From: Fibrobacterota bacterium
Lineage (GTDB): Bacteria; Fibrobacterota; Fibrobacteria; UBA11236
Length of the DNA: 64,000 nt
Assembly (NCBI GenBank): GCA_019509785.1
Contig: JAEKLQ010000032.1
Coordinates: forward strand, 11,229-75,228
Reading direction: 5' to 3'
Positions 10,498 through 32,439 of this stretch are shown here, one piece after another (position 1 is the first letter of the stretch; each line of letters begins with the position of its first letter). Both the position numbers and the translations under genes were made by a program. Under the pieces are notes generated by a model. It was not told where the DNA came from. It did not search any database and saw only the letters and a list, made by a program, of their open reading frames with translations.

Positions 10498-10572
10498 CGC
10501 GCCGGCCGCTGTTGGAACCGCCCGCATGGCGCTACCTTTCCCCATGCACGATATGCCGAAGGGGCGCCTGCA

Positions 10573-11559
10573 ATGAGACGACAAGCTCCGATTCCCCTCG
10601 GTGCGGCGGCGGAATCGGATAGATCCCCGGGCCTTCCGGCATGGCCCGATGCATGGCACGTGGTGGTGCGAAGCGCGGACCTACCCCCGGGAAAAGTCCG
10701 GAGCCTTCCCCTCGCGGGACGGGAGCTGGTGGTCTTCCGTACCGCGGCCGGTTCCCTCGGCGCCTTGGATGCCCATTGCCCCCATATGGGCGCCCATCTC
10801 GGCTGCGCCGCCGTGCAAGGCGGAAGCCTGGTATGTCCGCTCCATGGCTTCGCATTGGATCCCTCCGGCGAAGTTCGCGCGCCCGGCGAACTAGGCGGCG
10901 GCTCGCGTCCAGGCACCCGCGCATATCCGGTGACGGAAGCTTTTGGCCTCGTCTTCGTCCATCCGGGCGGGGACGTTTCGCCGGCAAGACCGCCTCCGCA
11001 ACCTGCCGCGGGCATGCGATGGCTGGCCGGGAGACCGCTTCGCTTGCGCGCCGACTGGCGCCACGTGGTGGTCAATGCCTTCGACCTCCTGCATATGCGC
11101 TCGGTCCATGGCCGCGCCTTGACGGGCCCGGCCCGCATCGAGTCGAAGGACGGCGCCTTGGCCATGAGCTATGAAAGCGGGGTATTGCCGCTGTCCGGGA
11201 CGGCAGGGTATATCACGCGAAGATTGTCGCGGAACCGGATCAAGGTCATGCAAACGTGCTACGGCCCATGGCTCATGGTCGAAAGCACGGTGGGGCCCAT
11301 CCGGACTTGCGCCGTGTTCGGCCTCTTGCAGGAAGGCGAATACCTGCGGGTCTTCAATGCCTTCGGAACCGCCCGCCGCGACCCCCTGGCCCGCTGGGGG
11401 CTCCACCTCATCCGCCTCTTCTACTATGCCTTTCTCCGGAAAGACTTCGCCATCCTGGAAGGCATGCGTCTGCGGTTCGCGCATCCGGAAGACGAAGGCG
11501 TAGCTGCCATAACGGCCTATCTGGAATCCTTCCGCGACCTGGAGCCTTCCGAAGGATGA
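10573..11559 (+). CDS. Rieske non-heme-iron oxygenase (PAO/KshA-like, single-subunit type)
   Basis: The Rieske motif is CPHMGAHL...CPLHGF. The mononuclear-iron motif DLLHMRSVH (DxxHxxxxH) is present. The stop overlaps the next start (ATGA). Confidence 0.75.
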   Translation: MRRQAPIPLGAAAESDRSPGLPAWPDAWHVVVRSADLPPGKVRSLPLAGRELVVFRTAAGSLGALDAHCPHMGAHLGCAAVQGGSLVCPLHGFALDPSGEVRAPGELGGGSRPGTRAYPVTEAFGLVFVHPGGDVSPARPPPQPAAGMRWLAGRPLRLRADWRHVVVNAFDLLHMRSVHGRALTGPARIESKDGALAMSYESGVLPLSGTAGYITRRLSRNRIKVMQTCYGPWLMVESTVGPIRTCAVFGLLQEGEYLRVFNAFGTARRDPLARWGLHLIRLFYYAFLRKDFAILEGMRLRFAHPEDEGVAAITAYLESFRDLEPSEG

Positions 11560-13439: not shown

Positions 13440-13441
13440 CG

Positions 13442-15076
13442 ATGAAGTTCCCCTACCTGGCGAATGCCGCGTGGAGCCTCGCCAGCCGCCCGGAAGCTTT
13501 GGCTTTCGAGCGTGGCCTCCGCGACGTGGAGACGGTCCAGCGGGCGCTCCTGCGGGACCTGCTGGCGCGCAACCGTGACAGCGGATACGGAAAGGAGCAC
13601 GGCTTTTCCACCCTCGTCCATGCCGAGGCCTATCGCGACCGGGTACCCGTGGCGGATTATGACGACATGGAACCCTGGATCCGCCGGGCCGCCCGGGGCG
13701 AGAAGGCCCTGACGGCGGAGAGCGTTCTGGTGCTCGAACCGACCGGGGGCAGCCAGGGCGGCAGCAAATGGATCCCCTATACCGCATCGCTCCGCAAGGA
13801 ATTCCGGCGGGGCCTGGCCCCCTGGATCCATAGCATGTTCCGTCGTTTCCCGGCGGCGATGCGCGGCACCGCCTATTGGTCGCTTTCGCCGCCCCTGCAA
13901 CGCGAACCGGGCTTCGAGTATTCGGTAAAGGCCGGCTTCGAAAGCGATGCGGATTACCTGGGGCCCCTCGGGCGCATCCTGGAAAGCCAAGCCTTCGCCG
14001 CGCCGTCCTCGGTGCTGCGGGAAAGGAACGCCGATGCCTTTTTCCATCTCACCGCATCGCACCTGTTGGCGTCGGAGGATCTGGCTCTCATTTCGGTGTG
14101 GAACCCTACCTTTCTCGCCTTGCTGCTCGACCGCATCCGCGCGGATCGGGAAAGCCTGCTGCGCGGCCTCCGCGACGGCGGGAGGGGCGCCCGCGCCCGG
14201 ACGGTCGCAAGGGCATTGGACGGGAGCGAGGACAGGGCCTGGATCGGAATATGGCCCCGCCTCGCCTTGATCAGCTGTTGGCGGGACGGCTGGGCCGCGG
14301 GCCCTGCGGATCGTTTGGCGGAATTTTTCCCCGGAGTCGCCTTCCAGGCCAAAGGCCTCCTGGCCACCGAAGCCCTGGTTTCCTTGCCCTGGCATGTTCC
14401 AGAAACGCTATCGGAAAACGGGAAGGAAGACGGGAGGGAAGACGGGACGTATGGCGCGCCCCTTCACCTTCTCAATTATCGCGGGCACTTTTTCGAATTC
14501 CTCGACGTCGAATCCGGTAAGACCCGTTTCGCCTGGGAGACCAAGGCTGGGGGCGTCTACTCGGTGCTGGTCACGACCGGCGGCGGGCTATACCGGTACC
14601 GGCTGCGCGATCTCGTGCGTATCGAAGGTTTCCGCTCCGCCTGCCCGGCGGTGCGTTTCTTGTCGAAGGAAGAGTCGTTCTCGGATCTGACGGGAGAGAA
14701 ATTGCAATCGGATTTCGTTCAGCATTGCGCGGAGCAGGCGTTAGCCGAGGCCGGGATCGGCACGGTCTTCTATCTGCTGGCGCCGGAGCCGGATGCGACG
14801 CCGCCCCGCTACGCCTTGCACGTCGGGCTGGAAGGGGATTCGCGGGCCAGCGCCCTGGAGGCCCGCCTGGAAGCGGCCTTGGAAGGGAACTTCCAATACG
14901 GCCTTAGCCGCAAGCTCGGGCAATTGGCACCAGTCCGAGTGGTGCCCGCCGGTCCCGGCGCGGAAAGTCGATATTACTACTATAAGGGCTTACGCGCGAA
15001 GTTGGGGGATATCAAGTGGAAGCCGTTGGAAAGCTCAGGCCCCTGGGCGGACATCCTGCGATCGAAACATCCATGA
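13442..15076 (+). CDS. GH3-family acyl-acid amido synthetase-like adenylating enzyme
   Basis: The motifs VQRALLRDLLARNRDSGYGKEHGF, VPVADYDDMEPWIRRAARGE and VLVLEPTGGSQGGSKWIPYT match GH3 (PF03321) signatures. The ATG at 13442 is 2 nt after the upstream TAG. Confidence 0.7.
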   Translation: MKFPYLANAAWSLASRPEALAFERGLRDVETVQRALLRDLLARNRDSGYGKEHGFSTLVHAEAYRDRVPVADYDDMEPWIRRAARGEKALTAESVLVLEPTGGSQGGSKWIPYTASLRKEFRRGLAPWIHSMFRRFPAAMRGTAYWSLSPPLQREPGFEYSVKAGFESDADYLGPLGRILESQAFAAPSSVLRERNADAFFHLTASHLLASEDLALISVWNPTFLALLLDRIRADRESLLRGLRDGGRGARARTVARALDGSEDRAWIGIWPRLALISCWRDGWAAGPADRLAEFFPGVAFQAKGLLATEALVSLPWHVPETLSENGKEDGREDGTYGAPLHLLNYRGHFFEFLDVESGKTRFAWETKAGGVYSVLVTTGGGLYRYRLRDLVRIEGFRSACPAVRFLSKEESFSDLTGEKLQSDFVQHCAEQALAEAGIGTVFYLLAPEPDATPPRYALHVGLEGDSRASALEARLEAALEGNFQYGLSRKLGQLAPVRVVPAGPGAESRYYYYKGLRAKLGDIKWKPLESSGPWADILRSKHP

Positions 15077-16083
15077 TACCCCTGCCTACCATGGCCACCG
15101 CGCCGACGGCCCAGGAAAAGATCCGCGGCATCCGCGAGGATCTTGCCTTCGGATGCGAAGCCCGCCTTCGGGATCTGCATGCCCTGGACGCGCGCCTGCA
15201 CGCGCGCTACGCCCTCTTCCCGGCCTTGCTCGCGGCGGGACTTCTGCTTTCCGCATCGGCCCTGCGCGGGCTGGAGATCGCGTGGCCGCGCTACGCCGCC
15301 GGCGTTCTGCTCGCCGCTCTGGGGATGAACAGCTGCTTTCTCCTTATCCATGAGGCCGTACACGGGATCCTGTTCCGGAACCCGGCCTGGAACCGGCTGG
15401 CGGGCGTCCTGCTTGCGGTCTGCGGCGGCATGGCCTTCAGCGCTTACCGTTTCCTCCACCTCCGCCACCATGAATTCCTGGGCGATCCCAGGGACCCCGA
15501 TGACTACGCCAACTATTCGCGCAGCCCGCGCCTCGTCTGGCTCATGCATTTCGTCCGCTTGGGGCTAGGCACGGTCCTCTACGTCTTCGCCATCCCCGTG
15601 GTTTCCCTGCGCCATGCCCCCGCGGCCGATCGCCGCGCCATCCTCGCGGAATACGCCTTGCTCTCGATCCTCATCCCCGCCGTGCTGTGCCTGGTTTCCC
15701 CCGGCAAGATCCTGGCCGTCTGGGGCGCGCCCTTCCTCCTGGCGAATTGGATGATCAATATCCGGGGCTTCTCCCAGCACGGCATCGCCGAGGCTTCCGA
15801 TCCGTGGCTAGCCAGCCGGTCCACCGTTCCGCATCCCCTGGTGCGGTTCTTCCTCATCAACGAGAACTTCCACCTGGAGCATCATCTTTTCCCCGGCGTA
15901 CCCGGCTATCGCCTCGCGGAATTGCACGTCCTGTTGCGCCCGCATATCCCGCGCCGCTTGCTCTGCCGTTCCTACGCGTCCTTCCTGGCCGCCTTCCTGC
16001 GGCAAGCGCCCCGCATGGACGAACATCCCATCGGCCTTACCTTCCAATCGGTCCAGGGACGCGATGGAGGAAGGTGCCTATGA
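15073..16083 (+). CDS. membrane fatty-acid desaturase family protein
   Basis: The three His boxes are HEAVHG, HLRHHEF and HLEHHLFP. The start overlaps the upstream stop (ATGA). Confidence 0.75.
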   Translation: MIPLPTMATAPTAQEKIRGIREDLAFGCEARLRDLHALDARLHARYALFPALLAAGLLLSASALRGLEIAWPRYAAGVLLAALGMNSCFLLIHEAVHGILFRNPAWNRLAGVLLAVCGGMAFSAYRFLHLRHHEFLGDPRDPDDYANYSRSPRLVWLMHFVRLGLGTVLYVFAIPVVSLRHAPAADRRAILAEYALLSILIPAVLCLVSPGKILAVWGAPFLLANWMINIRGFSQHGIAEASDPWLASRSTVPHPLVRFFLINENFHLEHHLFPGVPGYRLAELHVLLRPHIPRRLLCRSYASFLAAFLRQAPRMDEHPIGLTFQSVQGRDGGRCL

Positions 16084-17420
16084 TGGCCGGCAAGATCCGC
16101 ATCGCCTTGCTCTCCCCCAAAGGCCCGCTGTACAAGCACAAGACCGGCATCTTCCGCAAGTCCCTGCGGGTGGCGCCCTTGACCTTGACTACCTTGGCTG
16201 CGCTGATCCCGGAAGACGTACCCGCCGAGTTACGCCTGATCGACGAAGGCGTGGACGATATCCCCCTGGATCTGGATGCCGACCTGGTGGGGATGACCGT
16301 CATCACCGGATCCTCCACGCGCGCCTACGAACTCTCCGCACATTTCCGCTCCCGCGGCATCAAGGTGGTGCTGGGCGGTCCCCACGTGACCCTGGTGCCG
16401 GACGAGGCTTCCCGGCACGCCGACAGCATCGTCACCGGCTATGCCGAAGAGACCTGGCCCGAACTGCTGCGGGATTTCAAGCGCGGGAAAATGCGGCCGC
16501 GCTATTCCCAGTCCCCGTCCTTCTCCCTGGCCACCCCAGGCAACCATCCGTTTCCGCATCGGCATCTCCTGCCCAAGTCCATGTACAAGACCCGCAACAC
16601 CTTCGAGGCCACCCGGGGTTGCATCCATGCCTGCGAGTTCTGCGTGGTGCCCACGGCCTGGGGCCGCAAGCCTTTCCACAAGCCCGTGGGCCAAGTGGTA
16701 GAGGATATCCGCCGCACCGGCGCGAAGCACCTCGTTTTTTACGACCTCAACCTCATCGCCGATCCCGAGTACGCCAAGGAACTGTTCCGGGCCCTGATTC
16801 CGCTCAAGGTGCAATGGTTCGGGCTCTCCACCACCTTCGTCAACCGGGATCCGGAGCTGCTGGATCTGACGGCGAAAAGCGGATGCATGGGCTTGCTGGT
16901 GGGCTTCGAGAGCGTGAGCCGCGCTTCCCTGGCGGCGGTCAAGAAGGGCTTCAACAAGCCGGACGACTATCCTGGCTTCATCCGCGAATTGCACGGGCGG
17001 GGCATCGCCCTCATGGGCACCTTCGTATTCGGCTCCGACGGGGATACGCCGGACAGCTTCGCCGAGGTGGTGGACTTCGTGCAGGAGCATAAGATCGACC
17101 TGCCGCGTTATAGCGTTATGACCCCTTTTCCTGGTACACCGTTGCATACGCGCCTGGAAGCGTCGGGCCGCATCCTCACCAAGGATTGGAGCCAATACGA
17201 CGGCCAGCACGTGGTGTTCCAACCCAAGCAAATGACCGCCAAGCGATTGCAAGAAGGCCATGAATGGGCCTGGAAGCGAACTTACAGCCTCAAGCACGTG
17301 GCGGGTCGCATGCTGCGCATCATGCCCCATTGGCCCCTCATCCTCACGGCCAATTTCGGCTATCGGTTCTACGCCCACAACCTGGGCCGCTTCTATACTT
17401 GCCAAGGCGGGCTGGTATGA
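16080..17420 (+). CDS. cobalamin(B12)-binding radical SAM protein (class B rSAM)
   Basis: There is an N-terminal B12-binding-like domain (VGMTVITGSSTRAYELSAHFRSRGIKVVLGGPH). The rSAM cluster is TRGCIHACEFC (CxxxCxxC). The ATGATG start is coupled to the upstream TGA. Confidence 0.8.
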   Translation: MMAGKIRIALLSPKGPLYKHKTGIFRKSLRVAPLTLTTLAALIPEDVPAELRLIDEGVDDIPLDLDADLVGMTVITGSSTRAYELSAHFRSRGIKVVLGGPHVTLVPDEASRHADSIVTGYAEETWPELLRDFKRGKMRPRYSQSPSFSLATPGNHPFPHRHLLPKSMYKTRNTFEATRGCIHACEFCVVPTAWGRKPFHKPVGQVVEDIRRTGAKHLVFYDLNLIADPEYAKELFRALIPLKVQWFGLSTTFVNRDPELLDLTAKSGCMGLLVGFESVSRASLAAVKKGFNKPDDYPGFIRELHGRGIALMGTFVFGSDGDTPDSFAEVVDFVQEHKIDLPRYSVMTPFPGTPLHTRLEASGRILTKDWSQYDGQHVVFQPKQMTAKRLQEGHEWAWKRTYSLKHVAGRMLRIMPHWPLILTANFGYRFYAHNLGRFYTCQGGLV

Positions 17421-18838
17421 ACAAGATCCGCCTTACCATCGTCCACCCGTGCATCGGCCGCAAGCCCGGGGTGGAGTATATCCGCTCTTGGCAGATGGAG
17501 CCCCTGCCCGCGGCCTATCTGGCGGCCCTGGCGGCGCCGTACGCGGACATCTCGTTCCATGACGATCGTATGGAAGCGATCCCTTACGACGAGCCCGCGG
17601 ACCTGGTGGCTATCAGCGTGGAGACTTATACCGCCAAACGGGCCTACCAGATCGCCACCGAGTATCGCAAACGCGGCGTGCCAGTGGTGATGGGCGGCTT
17701 CCATGCCACCCTCATCCCCGAAGAGGTGATGGAATACGCCGAGGCCATCGTGATCGGCGAAGGCGAGCAGCTTTTCCCCAGGCTCCTGGAAGACTTCCGG
17801 GCAGGCCGGATGAAACGCGTGTATCGCGCCGAAGGGAGATCCGAGATCGGATCCATCCGTCCCGACCGTTCCATCTTCGCGGGCAAACGATATCTCAAGA
17901 TCGGGCTGGTGGAGGCGGCCCGGGGTTGCCATTTCAAGTGCGACTTCTGCGCCATCACCACCTACTTCGGCGCCACCCAGAGCCGCCGCCCCATCGACAA
18001 CGTGATCGCGGAGATCCGATCCATCAAGGACGGCCGCAAGCTCTTCTTCTTCGTGGACGACAACATCGTCTCGCATCCCAAGTGGGCCAAGGAGTTCTAC
18101 CGGGCCCTCATCCCCCTGAAGATCCGCTGGGTAAGCCAGGCCACCCTGACCATGGCCCAGGACAACGAGTTGATGGATCTGATGAAGCGGAGCGGCTGCC
18201 AAGGCGTGCTCATCGGCTTCGAGACCCTGGACCCTGCGAACCTGAAGGCCATGAACAAGCGCTTCAACGAAGTGAAAGGCGGCTTCCCCGCCGTCATCTC
18301 CAAGCTGAACCGCCACGGGCTCCGCCTCTACGCCACCTTCATCTTCGGCTACGACGCCGACACGCCCGAAAGCTTCGCGCGCACCGTGGCCTTCTGCAAG
18401 GAGCAGAACATCTTCATGGTCGCCTTCAACCATATCACCCCTTTTCCTGGTACGCAGTTGTACAAGCGCCTGGAAAAGGAAGGCCGGCTTCTCTACGGCA
18501 AGTGGTGGCTGGACGACCGCTACCAATACGGACAGGTGCCATTCAAGACCGTCCTGCCGCCGGAACTGATCCAGGAAGAATGCGTCAAGGCCCGCAAGAG
18601 CTTCTACAGCCTCGGCTCCATCCTGAAGCGCCTCCGCAACCGGGCCAATACCGGCAGCCTGTTCATGTTGCGCTCCTATTTCTTCATCAACTTCCTCCTG
18701 GGCAAGGAAGCCTCCCAGCGGGAGAACTATCCCTTGGGAGATGCCTCCTGGCGCGGGACCATCCTCAAGGCGGACGAGGACAGCCTGCGGCGCGCGGGCG
18801 TGATTCCTGAGATTCCCGCCATGCAGGCCGCGGAATGA
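17417..18838 (+). CDS. cobalamin(B12)-binding radical SAM protein (paralog of previous)
   Basis: The rSAM cluster is ARGCHFKCDFC. The architecture is the same as the upstream gene at about 45% visible identity. The overlap is ATGA. Confidence 0.8.
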   Translation: MNKIRLTIVHPCIGRKPGVEYIRSWQMEPLPAAYLAALAAPYADISFHDDRMEAIPYDEPADLVAISVETYTAKRAYQIATEYRKRGVPVVMGGFHATLIPEEVMEYAEAIVIGEGEQLFPRLLEDFRAGRMKRVYRAEGRSEIGSIRPDRSIFAGKRYLKIGLVEAARGCHFKCDFCAITTYFGATQSRRPIDNVIAEIRSIKDGRKLFFFVDDNIVSHPKWAKEFYRALIPLKIRWVSQATLTMAQDNELMDLMKRSGCQGVLIGFETLDPANLKAMNKRFNEVKGGFPAVISKLNRHGLRLYATFIFGYDADTPESFARTVAFCKEQNIFMVAFNHITPFPGTQLYKRLEKEGRLLYGKWWLDDRYQYGQVPFKTVLPPELIQEECVKARKSFYSLGSILKRLRNRANTGSLFMLRSYFFINFLLGKEASQRENYPLGDASWRGTILKADEDSLRRAGVIPEIPAMQAAE

Positions 18839-19977
18839 AACAGGTAGGAAAGGCCATCGACTCCGTTCCGGTCCTCGACCTCCACACCGTACGGGAAGCC
18901 GTTCCCGGGGACGACGCTTCCATCCGCGCCTTGTTGCGGCGTTCCCCCATGCCCGGGGATATCCGCATGGCCTTTACCCGGGAGCCCTCTTTCTTCGCGA
19001 GCCTCGAGGTTGAGGGGAAGGCGGGCCGGGCCGCCGTCGCCGAGGCCCTGGACGGCGCTATACGGGGGCTTATCGTGCGCAACGAGAAGGAAGCCTGGGT
19101 GAACGGAAACCCCATGCCCCTAGGCTACCTGAGCGGCCTACGCGTGGAGCCGATCCCGGATCGGGTGGTCGTCCTCCGGCGAGGCGCCGATTTCATCCGG
19201 CGCTGCCATGGGGAAGGCCGCGCGCGCATCTATCTCCAGACCGTCACCGAAGGGAATCGCAAGGCCGCGGCCCTGCTCTCCGCCGGGCGCCTCGGCATGC
19301 CCCGCCTCAAGGATCTGGGCGGCCTGCATACCTTCCTGCTGTCCCCTTCCGTATCACGCAAGTTACCGAACCTTCTCGGTTACGAAGTGCGGGCCGCCTC
19401 CCGGAACGATATCCCGGAGGTGATCGCTTTCCTTGGGGGCGAAGGGGCCCGCCAATTCTTCCCTTGCTACCGACCGGAGGATTTCGGCCCCCGGGGCGGA
19501 CTTCTCAAGGGCCTTTCCGCCGGCGACGTGCTCCTTCTGACCCGGGACGGCAGGCTGGCAGGAACTTTAGGCCTTTGGGACCAGGAGCCCTGCAAGCAAA
19601 GTTTCATCGCCGGCTACGGCCCCGCTCTCAATCGCATGCGGCCCTTCTATAATCTGCTGGCCCGCTTCCGGTCCCGTCCCGGCCTGCCCGCGGCCGGCGC
19701 AACCGTGCGGCATCTCAAGGCCGCCTTGCTCCGGATCGAGGGGGATGATGCCGGAGCTTTCGCCGTCCTCCTGAAGCATGCGTTGTGGAAGGCGCGCGAA
19801 CGGTCTTTGCCCTTGGCCATCATGGTCCACGAGCGCGATCCCTTCCTGCCCGTCCTGCGCGCCTTGCCTTCGGTGGCCTATGCCAGCCGCCTCTTCGCGG
19901 CTTATTTCGAGGATGGCCGGGAACTGGCGGAATCCCTGGACGGCCTCGTGCCGTACGTGGAATTGGGGGCGCTTTAG
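18835..19977 (+). CDS. hypothetical protein, possibly tandem acyl-CoA N-acyltransferase (GNAT/FemAB-like) fold
   Basis: It is a 380-aa ORF with strong codon bias, coupled to the upstream gene (ATGA). It matches no family confidently, so the fold is a guess from the composition pattern. Confidence 0.4.
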   Translation: MKQVGKAIDSVPVLDLHTVREAVPGDDASIRALLRRSPMPGDIRMAFTREPSFFASLEVEGKAGRAAVAEALDGAIRGLIVRNEKEAWVNGNPMPLGYLSGLRVEPIPDRVVVLRRGADFIRRCHGEGRARIYLQTVTEGNRKAAALLSAGRLGMPRLKDLGGLHTFLLSPSVSRKLPNLLGYEVRAASRNDIPEVIAFLGGEGARQFFPCYRPEDFGPRGGLLKGLSAGDVLLLTRDGRLAGTLGLWDQEPCKQSFIAGYGPALNRMRPFYNLLARFRSRPGLPAAGATVRHLKAALLRIEGDDAGAFAVLLKHALWKARERSLPLAIMVHERDPFLPVLRALPSVAYASRLFAAYFEDGRELAESLDGLVPYVELGAL

Positions 19978-19978
19978 C

Positions 19979-20722
19979 ATGGCTCTCCGCGGCGAAACCG
20001 TCCCGGTGGAACAACTCCAGACCGAGGAAATCCGGCGCATGTTCCTGCTCCTGGACCGGCACTACGCCAACGCCAGTTGGGAAGGATTCCGGGAGGACCT
20101 GGCGGAGAAGACCTGGGTGATCCTCCTCAAGGACGGGGATGAGTTGGCCGGATTCTCCACCCAGCTTCTGATGGAGACGCGCTTCGAGGGAGAACTACTT
20201 TCCGTGGTCTTTTCCGGCGATACCATCATCGATCCCGCCCACTGGGGATCGCCGGAGCTGCAAACCAGCTTCGCGGCCCTATTGGATCGCCTCCACCGGG
20301 GGAGGCCGGATCGCAGGCTGTTCTGGTTCCTCATCTCCAAGGGCTTCCGTACCTATCGCATCCTGCCCATCTATTTCCTGGACTTCCACCCTCGCCATGA
20401 CGTCCCCGTTCCGCCCTGGCACCGCCGCTTGCTCGATCACCTGGCGCAGACGAAGTTCCCGGCAGCCTATCGGCCCGAGCGGGGCATCTTGGATTTCAAC
20501 GGGCATTCCCAATACCTGCGCCCGCCGCTGAGCGTCATCCCGGAAGCGCGCATCATGGCCAATCCCCATATCCGTTTCTTCGCCGAGGCCAACCCGGGAT
20601 GGGCCCGGGGCGACGAATTGGCCTGCTTGGCGGAATACGCCCCGCATAATCTCACGCCGTACCTGAGGCGGCGTCTGCCTTCCATGCGCCGGAACCAGCC
20701 GGCCGCGCTTCAGGAAGGATAA
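19979..20722 (+). CDS. hypothetical GNAT-like N-acyltransferase
   Basis: WVILLKDGDELAGFST...LLSVVFSGDTIIDPAHWG resembles a GNAT beta-strand plus acyl-CoA-binding region. The ATG lies 2 nt after the upstream TAG. Confidence 0.4.
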   Translation: MALRGETVPVEQLQTEEIRRMFLLLDRHYANASWEGFREDLAEKTWVILLKDGDELAGFSTQLLMETRFEGELLSVVFSGDTIIDPAHWGSPELQTSFAALLDRLHRGRPDRRLFWFLISKGFRTYRILPIYFLDFHPRHDVPVPPWHRRLLDHLAQTKFPAAYRPERGILDFNGHSQYLRPPLSVIPEARIMANPHIRFFAEANPGWARGDELACLAEYAPHNLTPYLRRRLPSMRRNQPAALQEG

Positions 20723-21822
20723 CGGAATGCGGAAAAGAATCGTTCCCACCGCCCGGCTACCAAGGCTTTGACCCGGGATTCCAAAGGATGCAGATCATTC
20801 GTCCGGTAGGATTTTACGGTAGCCAGGTAGCCCTCCAGGAACGGGCCGGCCGCGCCGAAGGGCCCGTACCCCAAGGCCCCGTACATCCGCTCCAGCTCGC
20901 GCAAGGGATCGGCCGCCAGATCCTCGTAGCGCATCTCATGCAGCCGCCCCGGCGGGATCAGGTTCCGGTCCGCCAGATAGGCGTCGTTCACGGTCTCGTA
21001 CCGTTGCAGGATGTCCTCGTCCACTTCGGCGGGATCCGGGCTCTGGAGGTACATGTAGGGGAACAGGGTCGCGATGGTATGCCGCGAGCTCTTGAACACG
21101 GCGTAGGGGTCCCGCACGATATGCACGAAACGGGCATCGGGAAAGAGCTCCAGCAGAAGCGGGATGCGGGCCGTATGGGCCGGGGACTTGAACGCCAGGG
21201 TCCTGGCCCCATGGCGCCAAGCCAGCTTGCGGGCGAAGCGGCCGAAGGCGTCCTGCCATTCCTTCGCGGCGCCGGCCTCGGCCTCCTTGAAGGTGAGGTA
21301 ACGCGCATAATACCTCCGGTTCGCGGGGAAGCTCACCCCGCAGTAGGGGGAGCGGCCGGTCATCAGGGCCATGGCGAACTCGTCCTCCGCGGGGGAGCCG
21401 GCGGAAAGGGCCATGCCGTCCATCGGACGGGTCTTGGGGATGAAGAACCTCAGGATGGGAGCCAACCATCCTTCCGTGAGGAGGAAGGTTTCCGGGCTCA
21501 TGACTTGGAGCGTGTTGGGGCAGGCGAAGCGGTCCCGGTCCGATGCCAAGAGGTATTGCAGATGGGTCGTGCCCGCGCGCCAATGGCCCAAGACGAAAAG
21601 GGGCGGCTTCGGGGCCGGAGTCGATGCCACCTTAGCAGCGTACAACCCGCGCTCCACGCGGGAGACCAAGCTGTTAACGAGGGCGGCCGAGGTTACCGCC
21701 GCGGCGCGGTGCCAGTAACGCGGCTCCACCTTCCATCGGTTCTCCTTGAGCAGCCGCAACCACGCGCGGAAACCTATCCCGTACAAGTAATTATTCGCGA
21801 GACTTATCTTTCTGCTATCCAC
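20710..21822 (-). CDS. PAPS-dependent sulfotransferase family protein
   Basis: The 5'-PSB loop is LGHWRAGTTHLQYLL, followed by a later RDP motif (HIVRDPYAVFKS). The start is GTG at 21820-21822. Confidence 0.7.
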   Translation of the reverse strand: MDSRKISLANNYLYGIGFRAWLRLLKENRWKVEPRYWHRAAAVTSAALVNSLVSRVERGLYAAKVASTPAPKPPLFVLGHWRAGTTHLQYLLASDRDRFACPNTLQVMSPETFLLTEGWLAPILRFFIPKTRPMDGMALSAGSPAEDEFAMALMTGRSPYCGVSFPANRRYYARYLTFKEAEAGAAKEWQDAFGRFARKLAWRHGARTLAFKSPAHTARIPLLLELFPDARFVHIVRDPYAVFKSSRHTIATLFPYMYLQSPDPAEVDEDILQRYETVNDAYLADRNLIPPGRLHEMRYEDLAADPLRELERMYGALGYGPFGAAGPFLEGYLATVKSYRTNDLHPLESRVKALVAGRWERFFSAFRYPS

Positions 21823-21857
21823 CAGCGCCTTCCAACTTGATCCGTAAGGGAATATCC

Positions 21858-22658
21858 ATGAAGAAACTCCTGCTTCCAGCCGTCCTTCTTTGCCTCGCGG
21901 CTTTCACCGGCTGCAAGGACTACCATTATGTAAAAGTCGCCCAGGTGTTGCCCGTGGGCAAAACGTCCGGTCTCACGCCGGATGAACGGCAGGCGGACTC
22001 GCTGATGAAAGCGCTGGTCTCCAACCAGGCGGCCGTGGATCGCTTCCAGAAGATGTTCAAGTGCGCGGTCCTCGAGATCATCGATTTCGACAGTCTCACC
22101 TTCACGGTAAAGATAAACGCGGATTCCGCCGGCGCCGGTCACGCCAAGGCGGAATATTCCCTGGGAACGGATCCGGCCGCCAAGCCCGATCTGGTCTTGC
22201 CTATTTACCGCAAGAACCTGTCCAACCTCCTCCAGATCTTCGCCGACAATACCGTATCCGATGAAGAGGCGTACCGCATCCACCGGGCCGTCTTCGGATC
22301 TTCCCTGAGGTCCCTCTTCCAAGTGCCCGCCCTGTACGATCCGAAGATCGCCAAGCATCTGGCGCTGCCCAACTTCATCCAGATGACCCTGAAGAACGAG
22401 GGGAATTATGAATTCATGGGATCCAAGAAAGAAGCCGTGGTGACCATCGTCAACGTGGACGGCCAGTGGCTGGTGACGCAGGGCGCCTACGGCGATCCGG
22501 AAGTGAAGTGGGCCGTTACCCCCAAGCAGTTGGCGGATTTCACCCGCCTGGTATTCGAGCCCGGCAAGGGCGCCGCCACCTCCATGAGCGCCGCCCGGGC
22601 CCGCCTCAAGGAGATCAAGGCCTTCATTGACGGCATCACGGTTTATCGTCGGGGCTGA
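21858..22658 (+). CDS. lipoprotein of unknown function
   Basis: The signal peptide MKKLLLPAVLLCLAAFTGC carries a lipobox. AAGGGA lies before the ATG. Confidence 0.6.
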   Translation: MKKLLLPAVLLCLAAFTGCKDYHYVKVAQVLPVGKTSGLTPDERQADSLMKALVSNQAAVDRFQKMFKCAVLEIIDFDSLTFTVKINADSAGAGHAKAEYSLGTDPAAKPDLVLPIYRKNLSNLLQIFADNTVSDEEAYRIHRAVFGSSLRSLFQVPALYDPKIAKHLALPNFIQMTLKNEGNYEFMGSKKEAVVTIVNVDGQWLVTQGAYGDPEVKWAVTPKQLADFTRLVFEPGKGAATSMSAARARLKEIKAFIDGITVYRRG

Positions 22659-22664
22659 TGTCCG

Positions 22665-23351
22665 TTGGCCGAATTCCTCGTATACCTGAACCGGGTCGTC
22701 TGGTCCCTGGCCGGTTTCCCGGTCATGGCCTGGCTGTGGTACCGGCACGGCGGGGCCAGTGTTCCCTTGGCCGCCATCGTGCTCGGCATCCCGCTGGTCT
22801 TCGGCTATCTCATACCCGGATTGGCCATCCTGTGGCTGCGCCTCTGGGAGATCAACTCCAGGTTTTCCTATAAAGGCATCCAGATCCACCAAGGCTTCAT
22901 CTATGCCTCGGGCCTGTCCCTGGACGCTTACGCCGCCCACCATGTGCGCTTCGCCTCCCCCTGGGCCACCGTGATCGTGTCTTGCCTGCTCACGGGGTGC
23001 ATCGTCGGCTTCACGGGATGGTTCATCGATATCGCCGGGGTCAAGGCGGGCCGTATCCGCATCGATAATCCCCCCGCCCGGGCGGGCCGCGACCCGGCCA
23101 CCATCGTGACCTATTACGCTCCCGCGTGCTATTTCACCCTGGGCTTCTGCTACATGTTGGCGGTCCATTTGGTTTGGGCCTTCCTGGGCCCGGCCGCCCC
23201 GGGACTACCGGGTAACCTTCGAGATACGGTAACTCCCGGGTCACCATCGGCCTTTGCCATAGCCGCGTTGTACGCCGCAGGCTTTCTCCTCACCGCCGCT
23301 CCCGCCGGCGCGCTCTACCTTTACCTGCAAAAGAAGGGCCGGTCGGTTTGA
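22665..23351 (+). CDS. integral membrane protein of unknown function
   Basis: It has five to six hydrophobic helices. The start codon is TTG. Confidence 0.45.
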   Translation: MAEFLVYLNRVVWSLAGFPVMAWLWYRHGGASVPLAAIVLGIPLVFGYLIPGLAILWLRLWEINSRFSYKGIQIHQGFIYASGLSLDAYAAHHVRFASPWATVIVSCLLTGCIVGFTGWFIDIAGVKAGRIRIDNPPARAGRDPATIVTYYAPACYFTLGFCYMLAVHLVWAFLGPAAPGLPGNLRDTVTPGSPSAFAIAALYAAGFLLTAAPAGALYLYLQKKGRSV

Positions 23352-23389
23352 CGCCGGCATCCACAGGATTCGCGTCCTCCTTAGGCTTC

Positions 23390-24715
23390 ATGCTCGATCC
23401 CCTGGGGCGGGGCGCAGGCTTACGGCGTCGCGGCCGCCTGGTCCGCCTGGCCAAGGCCACCGGAGGCATGATCCTGGTTTTCGATCCCGCCGACGTGGAC
23501 GAGCTCCTATCCCGTCCGGATACGTTCGCCCGCTGGGAACGGGACACCGCCCCCGTCCGTTTCCCCACGGACTCGGCCTCTTCGCGCCTCATCTCGGGCC
23601 TACTGGCCATGCAGAACGGCGCTAAGCATCGGGAATTGCGGAGGCAGCTCGCTCCGGCCTTCGATCATAGTCGCCTTAAACATTACTTCGCGCTTTCACG
23701 TTCCGGCATCGCCGCTTTCGTGGAACGCCTTGAGGCATCGGGAACGGTCCAGGATCTCAACGGGATCTGCCATGCCCTGGCGATGAACACCGCCTTGCTC
23801 ACCTTGTTCGGCGCGTATCCGGGCGAGGAGTCCCGCGCCTTAGCCGATGACTTCCGCGCTTGGATGAACGCGGCCTTCTCGCCTTGGACCTTGCTGCTCC
23901 GCTTCGATGCGCCGGGCACTTCCTTTGGCCGTTTCCTAAGGCACGGCGAAAGCCTGGAAAAGCGCTTGATCGCGCTCTTTTGCAACCGCCCGGAAGCCCA
24001 AGGGGCCTTGGTCCAGGTGGTATTCGGGCCCGATTGGGACCGGCAGGTCACCGAGGCGGAGTTGGTCAGCCGCGCCGCGGGCTATTTCCAAGCCAGCTAT
24101 GAAACTACGGCCAATACCCTGGTCTGGACTTTGATCCTGCTGAACCTCCATCCCGAAGCGGCCCGCGCATCGAGGGAGGAAATCCGCGCCGTGATCGGCG
24201 AAGGCGAAATCGAATATGCGCATCTCCAGGCCCTGCCGTACCTACGCGCCGCGGTGCTGGAGAGCATGCGCCTGTTGCCGCCGGTTCTGCTTTTCCCCCG
24301 CATCGCGGTGCAGGAGCTCGCCTTGGGCGGCGTGGAAATCCCGAAGGGCGCCCGGCTCGCGTACGGACCGGCCTTGACACATCGCCTTCCGGACGTATTC
24401 GAGGATCCCTTGGCCTTCAGGCCCGAGCGGTTCCTGGGACCGGGCCCCCGCCCGGAGGGCTTCCTGTCCTTCGGGGGCGGGCCGCGCCGATGCCCCGGGG
24501 AGCAATTCGCTTTGAACGAAGTGCTGCTGATCCTGGCCGCTTGGCTGAGGCGGGGCTTTCCCCGCATCGAGACAGGCACTCATGTGAAATGCCATGGCTT
24601 GGTGGCCCATACTCCGGTCCGACCCGTGCCCTTCCGCAACATCCCCTGGTCCGAAGTTCCGGGGAAGCCTCCGCGTTTGCAAGGCAAGGTCTTCGCCGGG
24701 ATCAAGCATGCTTAA
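23390..24715 (+). CDS. cytochrome P450
   Basis: The heme-binding loop is FGGGPRRCPGEQFA (FxxGxRxCxG). The EXXR motif is LESMRLLPP. The start was trimmed to the ATG at 23390. Confidence 0.8.
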   Translation: MLDPLGRGAGLRRRGRLVRLAKATGGMILVFDPADVDELLSRPDTFARWERDTAPVRFPTDSASSRLISGLLAMQNGAKHRELRRQLAPAFDHSRLKHYFALSRSGIAAFVERLEASGTVQDLNGICHALAMNTALLTLFGAYPGEESRALADDFRAWMNAAFSPWTLLLRFDAPGTSFGRFLRHGESLEKRLIALFCNRPEAQGALVQVVFGPDWDRQVTEAELVSRAAGYFQASYETTANTLVWTLILLNLHPEAARASREEIRAVIGEGEIEYAHLQALPYLRAAVLESMRLLPPVLLFPRIAVQELALGGVEIPKGARLAYGPALTHRLPDVFEDPLAFRPERFLGPGPRPEGFLSFGGGPRRCPGEQFALNEVLLILAAWLRRGFPRIETGTHVKCHGLVAHTPVRPVPFRNIPWSEVPGKPPRLQGKVFAGIKHA

Positions 24716-25583
24716 GCCGCCCGGCCTTCTCTTCCTTGGCTTCGCGGCTGCCCTTCTGGCGGCCCTGCACGCCGGCGCCTTCGCCGCATTCTTCCATTTC
24801 GAAGCCGGGTTCTTCCTGGCCGCATTGCTCCTATGGCAGGCCACCGGCATACTGGGCGTCTCCGTCGGTTACCATCGCTTACTTAACCACCGCAGCTTCG
24901 AGTGCCCGCGTCCTATCAAATGGGTCTTGCTGTTCCTGGCCGGACTGGCGGGCCAATTGGGTCCCATCCGCTGGGTGCGCGTGCACCGTTTCCACCATGC
25001 CCACAGCGATACGGATCTGGATCCGCATACGCCCCGCCGCGGTTTCTGGTTCGCGCATCTGGCCTGGCTGTTCCAGGCAGGCCGCCGCGGGAATGAACCG
25101 GCGCTTCAGGAGCCTCCGGCCGATCTACTGGCCGATCCGGACTGCCGCTTTTTCGAACGGGCCTATCCCTTCCTGTTCTACGGCTCGCTCGCCGCCATCG
25201 GGTGGGGGTGGGGTTGGGCCGGCTTCCTCTGGCTCGGGACCTTCCGCTTGGCGGTTACCTTGCATAGCATCCTGAGCATCAACTCGGTCGGGCACGTCTT
25301 CGGCCGACGCGATTTCGACCTGCCGGACGACAGCCGGAACCTCCGCCTCTGGGCCGCCTTCACCGGCGGCGAAGCGCTCCACAACAACCACCATGCCCAT
25401 CCCCGCAGCGCCCGCTTCGCCTGCCGCCCCTGGGAACCGGACGCCGGATGGTTGGCCATCCGATCCCTGGCCGCCTTAGGACTGGCCTGGAACGTCCGCT
25501 ATTACGATCCCGTTACCGGCAGCCTGGCCATCCTCCGCCCCCGACCGCAATCGATCCCGCTTCCCTCGCCGGCCGGAACCTAA
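24708..25583 (+). CDS. acyl-CoA (delta-9-type) fatty acid desaturase
   Basis: The motifs HRLLNHRSF, HRFHHAHSDTDLDPH and NNHHAHP are present. The gene overlaps the P450 gene by 8 nt. Confidence 0.8.
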   Translation: MLKPPGLLFLGFAAALLAALHAGAFAAFFHFEAGFFLAALLLWQATGILGVSVGYHRLLNHRSFECPRPIKWVLLFLAGLAGQLGPIRWVRVHRFHHAHSDTDLDPHTPRRGFWFAHLAWLFQAGRRGNEPALQEPPADLLADPDCRFFERAYPFLFYGSLAAIGWGWGWAGFLWLGTFRLAVTLHSILSINSVGHVFGRRDFDLPDDSRNLRLWAAFTGGEALHNNHHAHPRSARFACRPWEPDAGWLAIRSLAALGLAWNVRYYDPVTGSLAILRPRPQSIPLPSPAGT

Positions 25584-31482: not shown

Positions 31483-31860
31483 AGGAACTCCTTTGGTGGG
31501 CGGACGGATCTCCTGTCGGGGCTGGAACGCGAATCTCCCTTGCAGCGGGAATTTTTTTCGGTCCGGCCGCGCTAGGGGAATAAAATTTTTTATGGTCGCG
31601 CGCGCTACGGCCCGGTTTTCCCGCGCTCTTCGCCTGTCTAGAGCGGGCGCTTGCGGAATGCGACACCCCAGGCCCGCCGCGCGTCCAAGCAAGAATGGCC
31701 CCGGGGTATCTTGCGTGTTACCATGGCGGGGGAATCCCGGACTCCCCATTCGCGATCCGTTTTCCGTCCTTCCTGCGAGGACTCCGGGCCATCCGGCTTC
31801 GAATTCCGGCCTTTTAATGTGGCTTAGCTCACAGATCCGCAAGTTTGGGCCAACCAGCAA

Positions 31861-31897
31861 TGGAATTGGTTATCGCTTCTTCGGGGAATTGGTTATC
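31861..31897 (+). promoter_or_regulatory. direct repeat GGAATTGGTTATCG x2 (23-bp register) immediately upstream of the tail-tube-like gene
   Basis: The same 14-mer appears at 31861-31874 and 31884-31897 in a locally AT-rich region about 35 nt before the RBS AAGGAGGG. Confidence 0.3.
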
Positions 31898-31929
31898 GTT
31901 TAGCCAGCGTTTCCGCAAAAGGAGGGTGT

Positions 31930-32439
31930 ATGCGCCGGAGAGGTTTCCTGGCGTTGATCCCGGCTCTCGGTTTCGGGATGGCCATGGCGGCATCCCCTGC
32001 CCATCGATCCCAGCCATCCGTTCAGACGGCTTTCGGGCCGTTCACGCTTAAGGTCGAGATCGAAGGCGTGACCCAAGGGGTATTCCAAAGCGTTGAGGGC
32101 CTTGCCTCCGAATCGGAGGTGGTTTCCGGAGAGGAATACGGGGCGCCTGCTTGGATACCCGGCCCCTCGCAAGGGTCCCGCCTTATCCTGCGCCGTCCTT
32201 ATGATCCGACCTTGAGCGGGCTATGGCGTTGGCGGCAATCGGTGATCGATGGCGACGCGCAAAAACGGGATGGCCACATATTCGTTTTCGATGCGGGCGG
32301 CAAGCTCGTTGCGCATTGGGTTTTCCGCAAAGGTTGGCCCAGCCGCTGGGAAGTGCCGAAATTGGAAGCCGGCGTACCCAATGCGGCCGAAGAGGTGGTG
32401 GAGATCGTGCACCAAGGCCTGAGCTTGGAAAGCCAGTAG
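31930..32439 (+). CDS. phage tail tube / eCIS tube family (T4 gp19 / Afp1-like, PF06841-like) protein with N-terminal Tat-type signal peptide
   Basis: The N-terminus is MRRRGFLALIPALGFGMAMAASPA (RRxFL, hydrophobic core, AxA site). The body FTLKVEIEGV..FQSVEGL..ESEVV...LILRRP...LWRW...DGDAQKRDGHIFVFDAGGKLVAHWVFRKGWPSRWEVPKLEA..EEVVEIVHQGLSL matches the tube-protein consensus (F.V.IDG..F.EVSGL..E.EV...L.R...W...DG..R.G.I...D..G....W.F...WPSKW..P.L.A). Confidence 0.6.
   Translation: MRRRGFLALIPALGFGMAMAASPAHRSQPSVQTAFGPFTLKVEIEGVTQGVFQSVEGLASESEVVSGEEYGAPAWIPGPSQGSRLILRRPYDPTLSGLWRWRQSVIDGDAQKRDGHIFVFDAGGKLVAHWVFRKGWPSRWEVPKLEAGVPNAAEEVVEIVHQGLSLESQ

Follow-up and report, generated by a model that had tools for sequence, protein, structure and literature searches.

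A tail-tube-fold protein with a conserved, probably Sec-type export leader, encoded by a lone gene in a housekeeping locus of an uncultured Fibrobacteria lineage

The tube/Hcp fold is usually viewed as a component of phage tails, tailocins, eCIS and T6SS that is put together in the cytoplasm. In the eCIS it is represented by the tube and tube-adaptor proteins (Afp1/Pvc1/Cis1 and Afp5/Pvc5/Cis5), canonical members of which begin 5-15 residues before the first strand (beta1) of the fold and are encoded in compact CIS operons. In the T6SS it is represented by Hcp (TssD), which can bind cargo as a free hexameric ring and can reach the cell exterior; Hcp has no signal peptide and exits only when the T6SS fires. 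Tube-like domains also occur in gp27/VgrG and in pb6 of phage T5, which assemble in the cytoplasm within phage tails or the T6SS. The pb6 protein is a two-domain derivative of the tube protein whose trimer forms a pseudo-hexamer (PMC8718954), and in tail tubes the beta2-beta3 loop makes the contacts between successive rings, such that its deletion abolishes polymerisation (PMC8718954). A literature search, conducted outside subscription journals, found no description of exported or orphan tube proteins.

The gene considered here is located within a 64-kb stretch of Fibrobacterota DNA, which was analysed as a whole and is referred to as the window (Table 1). The original prediction placed its product in the gp19/Afp1/Pvc1 tube family, and this was borne out. 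The protein scores 71.1 bits against the PF06841 profile (gathering score 28.2), with the match extending over profile positions 3-133 of 134, and 64.4 bits against TIGR02241, which is above the cutoff of 62.4. A phmmer search of solved structures returned CIS tubes, headed by 9gtp_a (E 1.8e-12, 30% identity), a 140-aa tube-like chain from the CIS baseplate of Streptomyces coelicolor, and followed by 7b5h, 7adz, Pvc1 (6j0b) and Afp1 (6rao). The AF2 model has a core pLDDT of 80-93 and the expected order of strands and helix, with a beta-sandwich (strands 39-44, 48-56, 84-90, 113-120, 126-145 and 153-166) and a single helix (97-106) making up the mature domain. When this model was compared with the PDB using Foldseek, only CIS/phage tubes and Hcp were recovered. 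The best match was Pvc1 (E 2.6e-7, probability 1.00), followed by Afp1 and the CIS tubes of S. coelicolor, AlgoCIS and Anabaena, and the top 15 matches were all CIS tube chains, after which came several Hcp structures (E 1e-5 to 1e-3, probability 1.00). The protein is therefore a member of the gp19/CIS tube family and has the tube fold. It has the same beta-sandwich and helix as the eCIS tube and adaptor proteins and shares with the eCIS tubes the motifs F.VEI.G, GL..E.EV, W.WR and GWP.(K/R)W...E..EI.H.GL. Its likeness to Hcp, in contrast, is one of superfold, with only ~8-14% identity and no T6SS genes in the window. There is also a weak match to a PHROG tail-tube family (8.5e-5), and a 100% identical database entry (P0001) is labelled 'phage tail protein [Fibrobacteres bacterium]'.

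Table 1. Features of the tube-fold gene and its 5' region (window coordinates)
Feature	Coordinates	Strand	Basis or remark
Distal direct-repeat copy GGAATTGGTTATCGCTT	31862..31878	+	Repeat search; 23-bp tandem duplication, lineage-specific
Conserved 5' block GGAATTGGTTATCGTTTAGCCAGCGTTTCC..AAGGAGGGTGT, probable promoter / 5' UTR	31885..31929	+	Invariant in close relatives
Shine-Dalgarno AGGAGG, 4 nt before ATG	31920..31925	+	Read from sequence
CDS, predicted exported tube-fold protein	31930..32439	+	169 aa, stop codon within span; from ORF list
Predicted signal peptide, residues 1-24	31930..32001	+	Heuristic n/h/c analysis; hydrophobic leader conserved in clade
Mature tube-fold domain, residues 36-167	32035..32430	+	AF2 model, Foldseek, dN/dS
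Degenerate beta2-beta3 loop, residues 57-83	32098..32178	+	pLDDT, entropy, length range

Given this family, the simplest alternative is that the gene encodes an ordinary cytoplasmic tube or tube-adaptor protein of a CIS located elsewhere in the genome, and that the hydrophobic N-terminus is an artefact of a mis-called start. The protein does have sub-threshold similarity to the NCBIfam families CIS5_fam (39.7 bits) and CIS1_fam (19.4 bits), but these values fall well short of the equivalog cutoffs (260 and 220, respectively), so an equivalog-level assignment failed. More directly, the leader ATG follows a Shine-Dalgarno sequence, and a GGAG-type element is found 6-10 nt ahead of the corresponding ATG in all nine lineages compared. 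This conservation confirms the start codon at the leader ATG. There is no conserved internal Met, and the leader is kept in 62 proteins. A mis-called start in a subunit of a full contractile injection system encoded elsewhere, which the original prediction had named as one result that would undo it, is thereby largely refuted. A CIS subunit would also be at odds with the degenerate stacking loop and with the housekeeping slot that the gene has occupied throughout the history of the clade, both described below, and we regard this alternative as highly improbable.

The region 5' of the gene was described in the original prediction as AT-rich and as containing a 14-bp direct repeat. The repeat exists, in fact as 17-nt copies at 31862-31878 and 31885-31901, while the region is only mildly AT-rich, with a GC content of 0.588 compared with 0.614 for the gene. 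Relatives L016, L017 and L018 have the proximal copy only, and the idea that the repeat functions as a regulatory iteron was downgraded, since the proximal copy alone is conserved and the second results from a private 23-bp tandem duplication. The proximal copy lies at the beginning of a block that is unchanged in relatives with 85-86% protein identity, while the remaining intergenic sequence of these relatives has diverged. In distant relatives the counterpart of the block is a less strictly kept A/T-rich stretch that precedes GCGCTT. The block is probably a promoter or 5' UTR. Scans for sigma-70 promoters and intrinsic terminators around the gene found nothing, and reading the block as an ECF-type GGAAT-N18-CGTT promoter was abandoned because the pattern is absent in distant relatives.

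The N-terminus of the open reading frame is MRRRGFLALIPALGFGMAMAASPA, as originally reported. It can be divided into an n-region (MRRR), an h-region (GFLALIPALGFGMAMAA) whose best 8-residue Kyte-Doolittle window is 2.59, and a c-region with two candidate signal peptidase I sites (A18-M-A20|A21 and S22-P-A24|H25), these sites being those given by a hand-written n/h/c heuristic rather than by a trained predictor. By the same heuristic, the leader fits the tripartite Sec/signal peptidase I pattern of a positive n-region, a hydrophobic h-region of 10-20 residues and small residues at -3/-1. A segment of 20-50 aa with a hydrophobic core precedes the tube domain in the 62 clade members, 61 of which have small residues at -3/-1, and while the leader sequence drifts in a near-neutral manner (pN 0.5-0.7), its hydrophobicity is maintained. 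Judged by these sequence features, the N-terminal export leader is genuine and kept across the clade, and the signal peptide of the original prediction stands. Such a cleavable-type leader distinguishes the window protein from the eCIS tubes.

The type of leader is a separate matter. The original prediction regarded it as a textbook Tat signal, and the protein does contain a match to the RRxFL core (R3-R4-G-F-L), but the Tat route itself found little support. Tat recognition requires a conserved n-region motif, (S/T)-R-R-x-F-L-K, and Tat leaders are typically more than 30 aa in length with an extended n-region and a weakly hydrophobic h-region. The window leader, in contrast, is only ~20-24 aa and has a single residue before the RR. 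The twin arginine is present in just 9 of the 62 clade members. It is missing from orthologues that are 86-88% identical (which begin MRGKGFLAW or MRGKVFLAW) and from all seven distant syntenic orthologues (with starts that include MHRSS, MIRF, MLRTG, MNRCS and MPHRN), and with a mature domain so strongly conserved, the orthologues would be expected to share one export route. Sec export with processing by signal peptidase I is thus the parsimonious route, because RR is rare in the clade and lost in close orthologues and because the leader is short, and the leader is most likely of the Sec type rather than Tat. There is no L-x-x-C lipobox in the leader, which lacks Cys. If the protein were instead exported by Tat, it would cross the membrane in the folded state, perhaps even as an oligomer assembled beforehand. 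Beyond the RRxFL core, this is consistent with the high Gly, Pro and Ala content of the h-region and with the basic residues H25-R26 just past the AxA site ('AGRN' in relatives), as basic residues directly after the cleavage site are atypical for efficient Sec substrates. In addition, a few distant exported members, P0146 (KRREFLKGVGAAAGAAALA), P0142 and P0194, have convincing Tat-type leaders, from which it appears that Tat export of the tube fold does occur somewhere. For the window protein, however, we consider the Tat route unlikely.

The genomic context provides no sign of a contractile machine. Among the ~48 plausible genes of the 64-kb window, a Pfam scan detected neither sheath, baseplate or spike families nor any other phage family, in agreement with the description of the gene as a lone one. 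Genes for a sheath, baseplate, spike, tape measure or ATPase, such as accompany the genes of eCIS tubes, are absent from its vicinity. The gene occupies the same slot in seven further Fibrobacteria MAGs, with identical synteny (DUF3078-unk770-hisE-hisG-[gene]-ahpC-MT-glgP-prs-GT9-MBL), and no CIS operon genes lie within +/-10 kb of it in these genomes. The housekeeping genes conserved around it show no obvious functional connection to the tube-fold gene, which is present as a single copy. The possibility that the gene is now carried by a prophage or phage was rejected, given the absence of phage families in the window, a GC content (0.614) that is native when compared with that of the neighbours (0.59-0.64), and a search of IMG/VR viral contigs that yielded no clade relatives. 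The gene is a stably and vertically inherited chromosomal gene of an uncultured Fibrobacteria lineage.

The secreted paralogs that flank the gene in the window, as originally noted, are choice-of-anchor-D/ASH proteins. They are indeed its neighbours, but the link that this seemed to imply did not hold. ASH proteins are missing from the slot in the seven syntenic relatives, and ASH3 is missing even in an 86%-identical relative, so a functional link to them was rejected; on this comparison, the flanking paralogs are recent insertions in the window lineage and not partners. A fusion of an ASH-type Ig domain to a tube domain, which P0154 had brought to mind, was also rejected, as the BLASTP E values were 0.1-0.26 and the N-terminal domain of P0154 has no Pfam or NCBIfam match.

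The mature domain is under strong purifying selection, with dN/dS values of 0.06-0.09 for close pairs. The protein evolves faster than its housekeeping neighbours, with 59-69% identity between genomes compared with 83-90% for hisG, ahpC and glgP. This rate would be compatible with an exported decoy or defence factor, in which a tube-like protein in the periplasm or at the surface, perhaps by capping tube interfaces or by mimicking them, hinders incoming contractile-tail phages, tailocins, eCIS or T6SS. Such a protein would place a phage-derived fold at the point where incoming tails act, and an arms race could account for the variability of the beta2-beta3 loop. On the other hand, dN/dS is low overall, PADLOC gave no match for the gene, and in all of the genomes the gene occupies a stable position among housekeeping genes rather than a place in a defence island. 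To our knowledge there is no precedent for a decoy function of an exported tube-like protein, and we give this explanation a low probability.

The beta2-beta3 loop is the least conserved segment of the protein in this clade. Its pLDDT is below 50 at residues 61-81, although AF2 monomer models of true tubes are often low there too. Within the clade, the segment varies from 11 to 37 aa and is prone to indels, and its entropy relative to the remainder of the mature protein gives a ratio of 2.16. The corresponding ratio is 1.06 in canonical tubes and 0.79 in distant exported relatives, with lengths of 24-31 aa, and so the degeneracy is confined to the window clade among the groups compared. The canonical loop motif, EYREG...RKLPG..KY, has been lost in the clade except for P77-G78, and in P0054 and P0061 little of the loop is left. 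Since stacking into a long tube depends on this loop, a degenerate loop implies that such stacking is probably absent and that it was probably lost in the window clade.

This bears on whether the protein might form a new type of extracytoplasmic filament or tube, in which Sec-exported subunits would polymerise by themselves into a tube-like fibre in the manner of pilins or curli. Tube proteins are intrinsically prone to polymerise (PMC8718954), and a granule secretome is rich in tube-family protein (Phage_T4_gp19), whose leaders were not addressed in that study (PMC12019908). Fusions of tube domains to collagen, described below, also suggest uses associated with fibres. Yet the segment that would have to join one ring to the next is the least constrained in the clade, and no usher, chaperone, initiator or terminator gene is adjacent. 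A filament is accordingly an unlikely reading.

The window protein is not unique in having a leader, contrary to what was originally supposed, as leader-bearing PF06841 proteins are widespread. Leaders were found in ~55-60 of the 147 nearest (deep) PF06841 representatives, a proportion of ~40% that is inflated by the presence of leader columns in the query profile. They are of the Sec, lipoprotein and Tat kinds, with lipoboxes restricted to certain distant relatives (P0125, P0164 and P0183). Like the window protein, these proteins have a signal peptide followed by the tube domain and are encoded by lone genes among housekeeping genes in every context checked, the contigs of P0072, P0146 and P0122 being uninformative on gene context at 1-3 kb. 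Examples include HEX4997296.1 (P0073) from Terriglobia and P0276 from soil. They are ~31-42% identical to the window protein and differ from it in that the canonical beta2-beta3 hairpin is kept. In some of them (P0068, P0084, P0081 and P0127) two tube domains are present in tandem, and P0127 is a collagen fusion in which a signal peptide is followed by collagen triple-helix repeats and two tube domains. A trimer of such a chain would contain six tube domains. The pb6 and gp27/VgrG tube-like domains, in which three copies of two domains rebuild a six-fold ring, serve as a precedent for these tandem proteins, the window protein itself being single-domain, and this domain architecture makes the assembly of rings outside the cytoplasm plausible. 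A profile built from the distant leader-bearing members (A3) drew mostly canonical 143-aa tubes, which implies that the exported members do not form a clade of their own. In a distance tree, the nearest neighbours of the window clade are leaderless tubes, and the acquisition of a leader in this clade is suggested to be an independent recruitment.

Taken together, these data are best explained by a domesticated tail-tube-fold protein that derives from a CIS or phage tube gene, is vertically inherited, would be exported by its own signal peptide and would form rings rather than tubes, a reading to which we assign a probability of about 0.6. The description of the protein as a repurposed structural fold is upheld by the SD-supported start, the clade-wide leader and the conserved housekeeping slot. 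In this scheme translation begins at the annotated ATG, and the leader would take the unfolded chain through Sec, after which signal peptidase I would remove ~20-24 residues, as the leader anatomy and the comparison of orthologues indicate. The mature domain of ~145 residues would then adopt the tube beta-sandwich that the model and the profile matches predict, either in the periplasm or further out. Six-fold, Hcp-like rings would probably form through the well-conserved strands of the inner sheet, and, with the beta2-beta3 loop degenerate, these would probably not stack into a long tube. As there is no sheath, baseplate or spike, the protein would act as a ring, scaffold or binding module of the envelope or surface rather than as an injection conduit.

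More broadly, and with rather less than even confidence, we propose that these proteins represent a widespread and, in the literature searched, undescribed class, in which tube domains have been repeatedly recruited from phages or CIS, provided with Sec, lipoprotein or Tat leaders, used alone or in fusions (in tandem or on a collagen stalk), and assembled as six-fold rings outside the cytoplasm, with the Fibrobacteria proteins forming a derived branch in which stacking was given up. If true, the tube fold would have a role in the cell envelope or outside the cell that does not depend on any contractile machine.

A version of this fold that is predicted to be exported, stand-alone, strongly conserved and vertically inherited would show the tube fold living outside contractile machines. 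One practical consequence is that surveys in which PF06841 or the label 'phage tail protein' is taken as evidence of a prophage or eCIS will over-call, the window gene being annotated in just this way. These proteins are also a natural experiment for separating the features of a tube protein needed for ring formation from those needed for stacking, and the wider set, with its Sec, lipoprotein and Tat leaders, tandem domains and collagen fusion, is a testable family in which a role for tube rings in the periplasm or at the cell surface may be sought.

The open reading frame of the original prediction is present in the window with the N-terminus described (see table), and public databases hold an identical protein labelled 'MAG: phage tail protein [Fibrobacteres bacterium]'. 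Its placement in the tail-tube family was borne out, since sequence and fold evidence agree. Residues 38–164 match PF06841 (T4 gp19 tail tube, profile positions 3–133 of 134) with 71.1 bits (Pfam cutoff 28.2), the NCBIfam model TIGR02241 is barely passed (64.4, cutoff 62.4), and the equivalog models of contractile injection system (CIS) tubes lie far out of reach (CIS5_fam, 39.7 vs 260; CIS1_fam, 19.4 vs 220). A phmmer search of PDB sequences returned CIS tube-type chains only (S. coelicolor 9gtp_a, 1.8e-12; Anabaena 7b5h; AlgoCIS 7adz; Pvc1; Afp1). In an AF2 model built from 28 homologues (mean pLDDT 71.7, core 80–93), low confidence is confined to the leader (residues 11–33) and residues 61–81, and all PDB matches listed by Foldseek have probability 1.00, namely the tube chains Pvc1, Afp1/5 and those of the S. 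coelicolor CIS, AlgoCIS and Anabaena CIS, followed by Hcp proteins. The likeness to Hcp is at the fold level only, and Hcp leaves the cell by being fired rather than by Sec. Judged by sequence and model, the window protein belongs to the PF06841/TIGR02241 tube family, but it is without four features that define functional CIS or phage tubes, which show equivalog-level similarity, are encoded in an operon with sheath, baseplate and related genes, are cytoplasmic, in place of the predicted export leader seen here, and conserve the stacking loop, which this clade does not.

Features of the window and of one other contig
Feature	Position	Strand	Description
770-aa protein (unk770)	8185-10497	+	Lies between DUF3078 and hisE in every relative; 65–72% identical
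~15-kb block	~10570-25580	+/-	Between unk770 and hisE
Secreted paralog, 448 aa	27094-28440	-	Signal peptide, choice-of-anchor-D / ASH-type Ig domain
Secreted paralog, ~902 aa	28774-31482	-	Signal peptide; internal duplication, two choice-of-anchor-D / ASH-type Ig domains
Second direct repeat	31550-31608		AATTTTTTTCGGTC / AATTTTTTATGGTC, 34-nt spacing, then GC palindrome GTCGCGCGCGC
First direct repeat	31862-31901		23-bp tandem duplication
Shine-Dalgarno	31920-31925	+	AGGAGG, 4 nt upstream of tube-like gene's ATG
Tube-like gene	31930-32439	+	ORF, 169 aa, N-terminus MRRRGFLALIPALGFGMAMAASPAHR
Secreted paralog, 473 aa	32517-33938	-	Signal peptide, choice-of-anchor-D / ASH-type Ig domain
P0127 gene	L023 10001-11980		5.18-Mb contig ERZ22147072 ctg24741c, between EF-G and housekeeping genes

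Among 5.8 billion proteins searched there were 64 relatives, all from uncultured Fibrobacteres/Fibrobacteria and nearly all of 162–189 aa, about 25–35 aa over canonical tube length. In the alignment every full-length member carries a leader, with a short, usually basic n-region and a hydrophobic stretch of 14–28 residues, and by our own heuristic small residues stand at −3/−1 ahead of the conserved GPFTIKVEIEG in 61 of 62 clade members. Signal peptides diverge in sequence while staying hydrophobic; here, among distant orthologues, leader pN is 0.5–0.7 vs ~0.2 for the mature part, and leader hydrophobicity is kept throughout despite almost neutral sequence change. A mis-called start is countered by a GGAG-type Shine-Dalgarno sequence 6–10 nt upstream of the leader ATG in all nine lineages compared, and by the 45 nt preceding the ATG, which are invariant in relatives at 85–86% protein identity while the remaining intergenic DNA has diverged.

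The original prediction had the leader as Tat-type, and the window protein does contain R-R-G-F-L, with basic residues directly after the candidate cleavage sites that are slightly atypical of Sec. RR occurs within the first 12 residues of only 9 of 62 clade members, however, and is replaced in orthologues at 86–88% identity (MRGKGFLAW or MRGKVFLAW); distant syntenic orthologues begin MHRSS, MIRF, MMIRL, MLRTG, MNRCS or MPHRN, and the leader here is short, with a single residue before the RR. Tat export of this orthologue is thus improbable. The mature domains are those of strongly conserved orthologues, which makes a Sec/signal peptidase I route common to the clade the parsimonious reading of these sequences.

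All tube proteins have a long β2-β3 loop that provides most inter-ring contacts, and its deletion abolishes polymerisation of T5 pb6 and SPP1 gp17.1 (PMC8718954). In the AF2 model a low-confidence region separates β2 (residues 48–56) from β3 (84–90), and within the clade residues 62–82 have 2.16 times the per-column entropy of the remaining mature protein, vs ratios of 1.06 in 59 canonical tubes and 0.79 in 54 distant exported relatives. The segment spans 11–37 residues in the clade, being almost deleted in two members (P0054, P0061), and 24–31 in the other two sets, and of the canonical E-Y-R-E-G...R-K-L-P-G-x-x-K-Y motif the window protein keeps only P77-G78. The inner-sheet strands, which build the 24-stranded lumen barrel of a single ring (PMC8718954), are the clade's best-conserved parts. 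With these strands conserved and the stacking loop variable, ring formation has plausibly been retained and ring stacking probably lost.

A Pfam scan of ~48 plausible genes over the whole 64-kb window turned up kinases, transaldolase, acetyl-CoA synthetase, histidine genes, peroxiredoxin, glycogen phosphorylase, PRPP synthetase, glycosyltransferases and the like, and no match to any sheath, baseplate, spike, tape-measure or other phage family, as had been claimed for the first three. PADLOC gave no match for the gene, and IMG/VR viral contigs held no clade relatives. Seven further Fibrobacteria MAGs, with contigs of 10–520 kb, share the identical slot (7/7): DUF3078, unk770, hisE, hisG, the tube-like gene, ahpC(−), methyltransferase(−), glgP, prs, GT9 and MBL(−). 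Across these genomes the tube-like protein is 59–69% identical, hisG, ahpC and glgP 83–90%, and the methyltransferase and DUF3078 45–60%. The gene's GC (0.614) is in line with its neighbours (0.59–0.64; window 62%), dN/dS on the mature domain is 0.06–0.09 (close pairs, pS ~0.5), and the clade occurs in five GTDB species representatives only. The gene has long been inherited vertically in a single lineage and is functional; it is not the debris of a prophage.

The three secreted paralogs match NF012200, PF15780 and PF22073, while the C-terminal ~300 aa of every repeat match no family. An association of the tube-like gene with them is not supported: all three are missing from the seven syntenic relatives, and ahpC directly follows the tube-like gene in an 86%-identical relative, so by this comparison they are recent insertions in this lineage only, not partners. 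In one relative (Fibrobacteria MAG JANYDA010000032, locus L002, 10716-11516) a 266-aa EF-hand calcium-binding protein lies between the tube-like gene and ahpC, a further sign that the adjacent intergenic DNA tolerates insertions. The upstream direct repeat exists, but as a duplication private to the window lineage; relatives have one copy, within the invariant 45-nt block ending at the ATG. The second repeat, upstream of the 902-aa paralog, may mark its promoter or operator. Elsewhere, unk770 and hisE are adjacent in 7/7 relatives, and the ~15-kb block between them (a Rieske protein, three fatty-acid desaturases, a GH3-family adenylating enzyme, two B12-binding radical-SAM enzymes, a sulfotransferase, a cytochrome P450 and several proteins without family) resembles an inserted island for lipid modification or natural products. 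The 770-aa protein has no Pfam or NCBIfam match; its synteny and identity in all relatives mark it as a conserved lineage-specific protein.

Searched exhaustively with a profile, 1.84 billion representatives yielded 3345 matches, the clade being one representative at 269 bits and the next scoring ~120 bits. Among the best 147 non-clade representatives ~55–60 have an N-terminal leader (called by heuristic, with false positives taken out by eye), a fraction inflated by the leader columns of the query profile. Most are Sec-type; a few distant members have lipoboxes (P0125, P0164, P0183) or convincing Tat-like leaders (P0146, P0142, P0194; e.g., MSDKKDAAMKRREFLKGVGAAAGAAALA), so all three export routes appear to be used for the fold. 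A profile from distant exported members retrieves chiefly canonical 143-aa tubes, and a rough neighbour-joining tree requires at least 19 changes of the exported state, vs 41 ± 3 when labels are shuffled; the nearest neighbours of the window clade have no leader. Leaders were thus apparently acquired on several occasions. The three distant exported members placed on long contigs (soil P0276, Terriglobia P0073 and P0127) are each lone among housekeeping genes. Four proteins (P0068, P0084, P0081, P0091) have two PF06841 domains each, and the 659-aa P0127 joins a signal peptide, ~180 residues of collagen G-x-y repeats and two PF06841 tube domains, with a sub-threshold match to Bdello_MAT_N, the N-terminal domain of Bdellovibrio mosaic adhesive trimer fibres. 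A collagen trimer with two tube domains on each chain would rebuild a six-fold ring, like T5 pb6 and gp27/VgrG, which supports exported members as ring formers. P0127 is possibly a surface fibre of three chains with a pseudo-hexameric tube ring at its tip.

The leader, its start and the lone context support the view that the window protein is an exported, stand-alone, repurposed tube fold, and it is very likely both exported and independent of any CIS. We propose, with a probability of about 0.6, that it would be exported via Sec, freed of its leader by signal peptidase I, and assembled, in the envelope or at the surface, into rings rather than tubes. In the full texts searched, which covered few subscription journals, no account of exported tube proteins that are orphans or bear a signal peptide turned up. 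The window protein is a clean, conserved redeployment of a well-known fold, apparently undescribed, with a broader family behind it.
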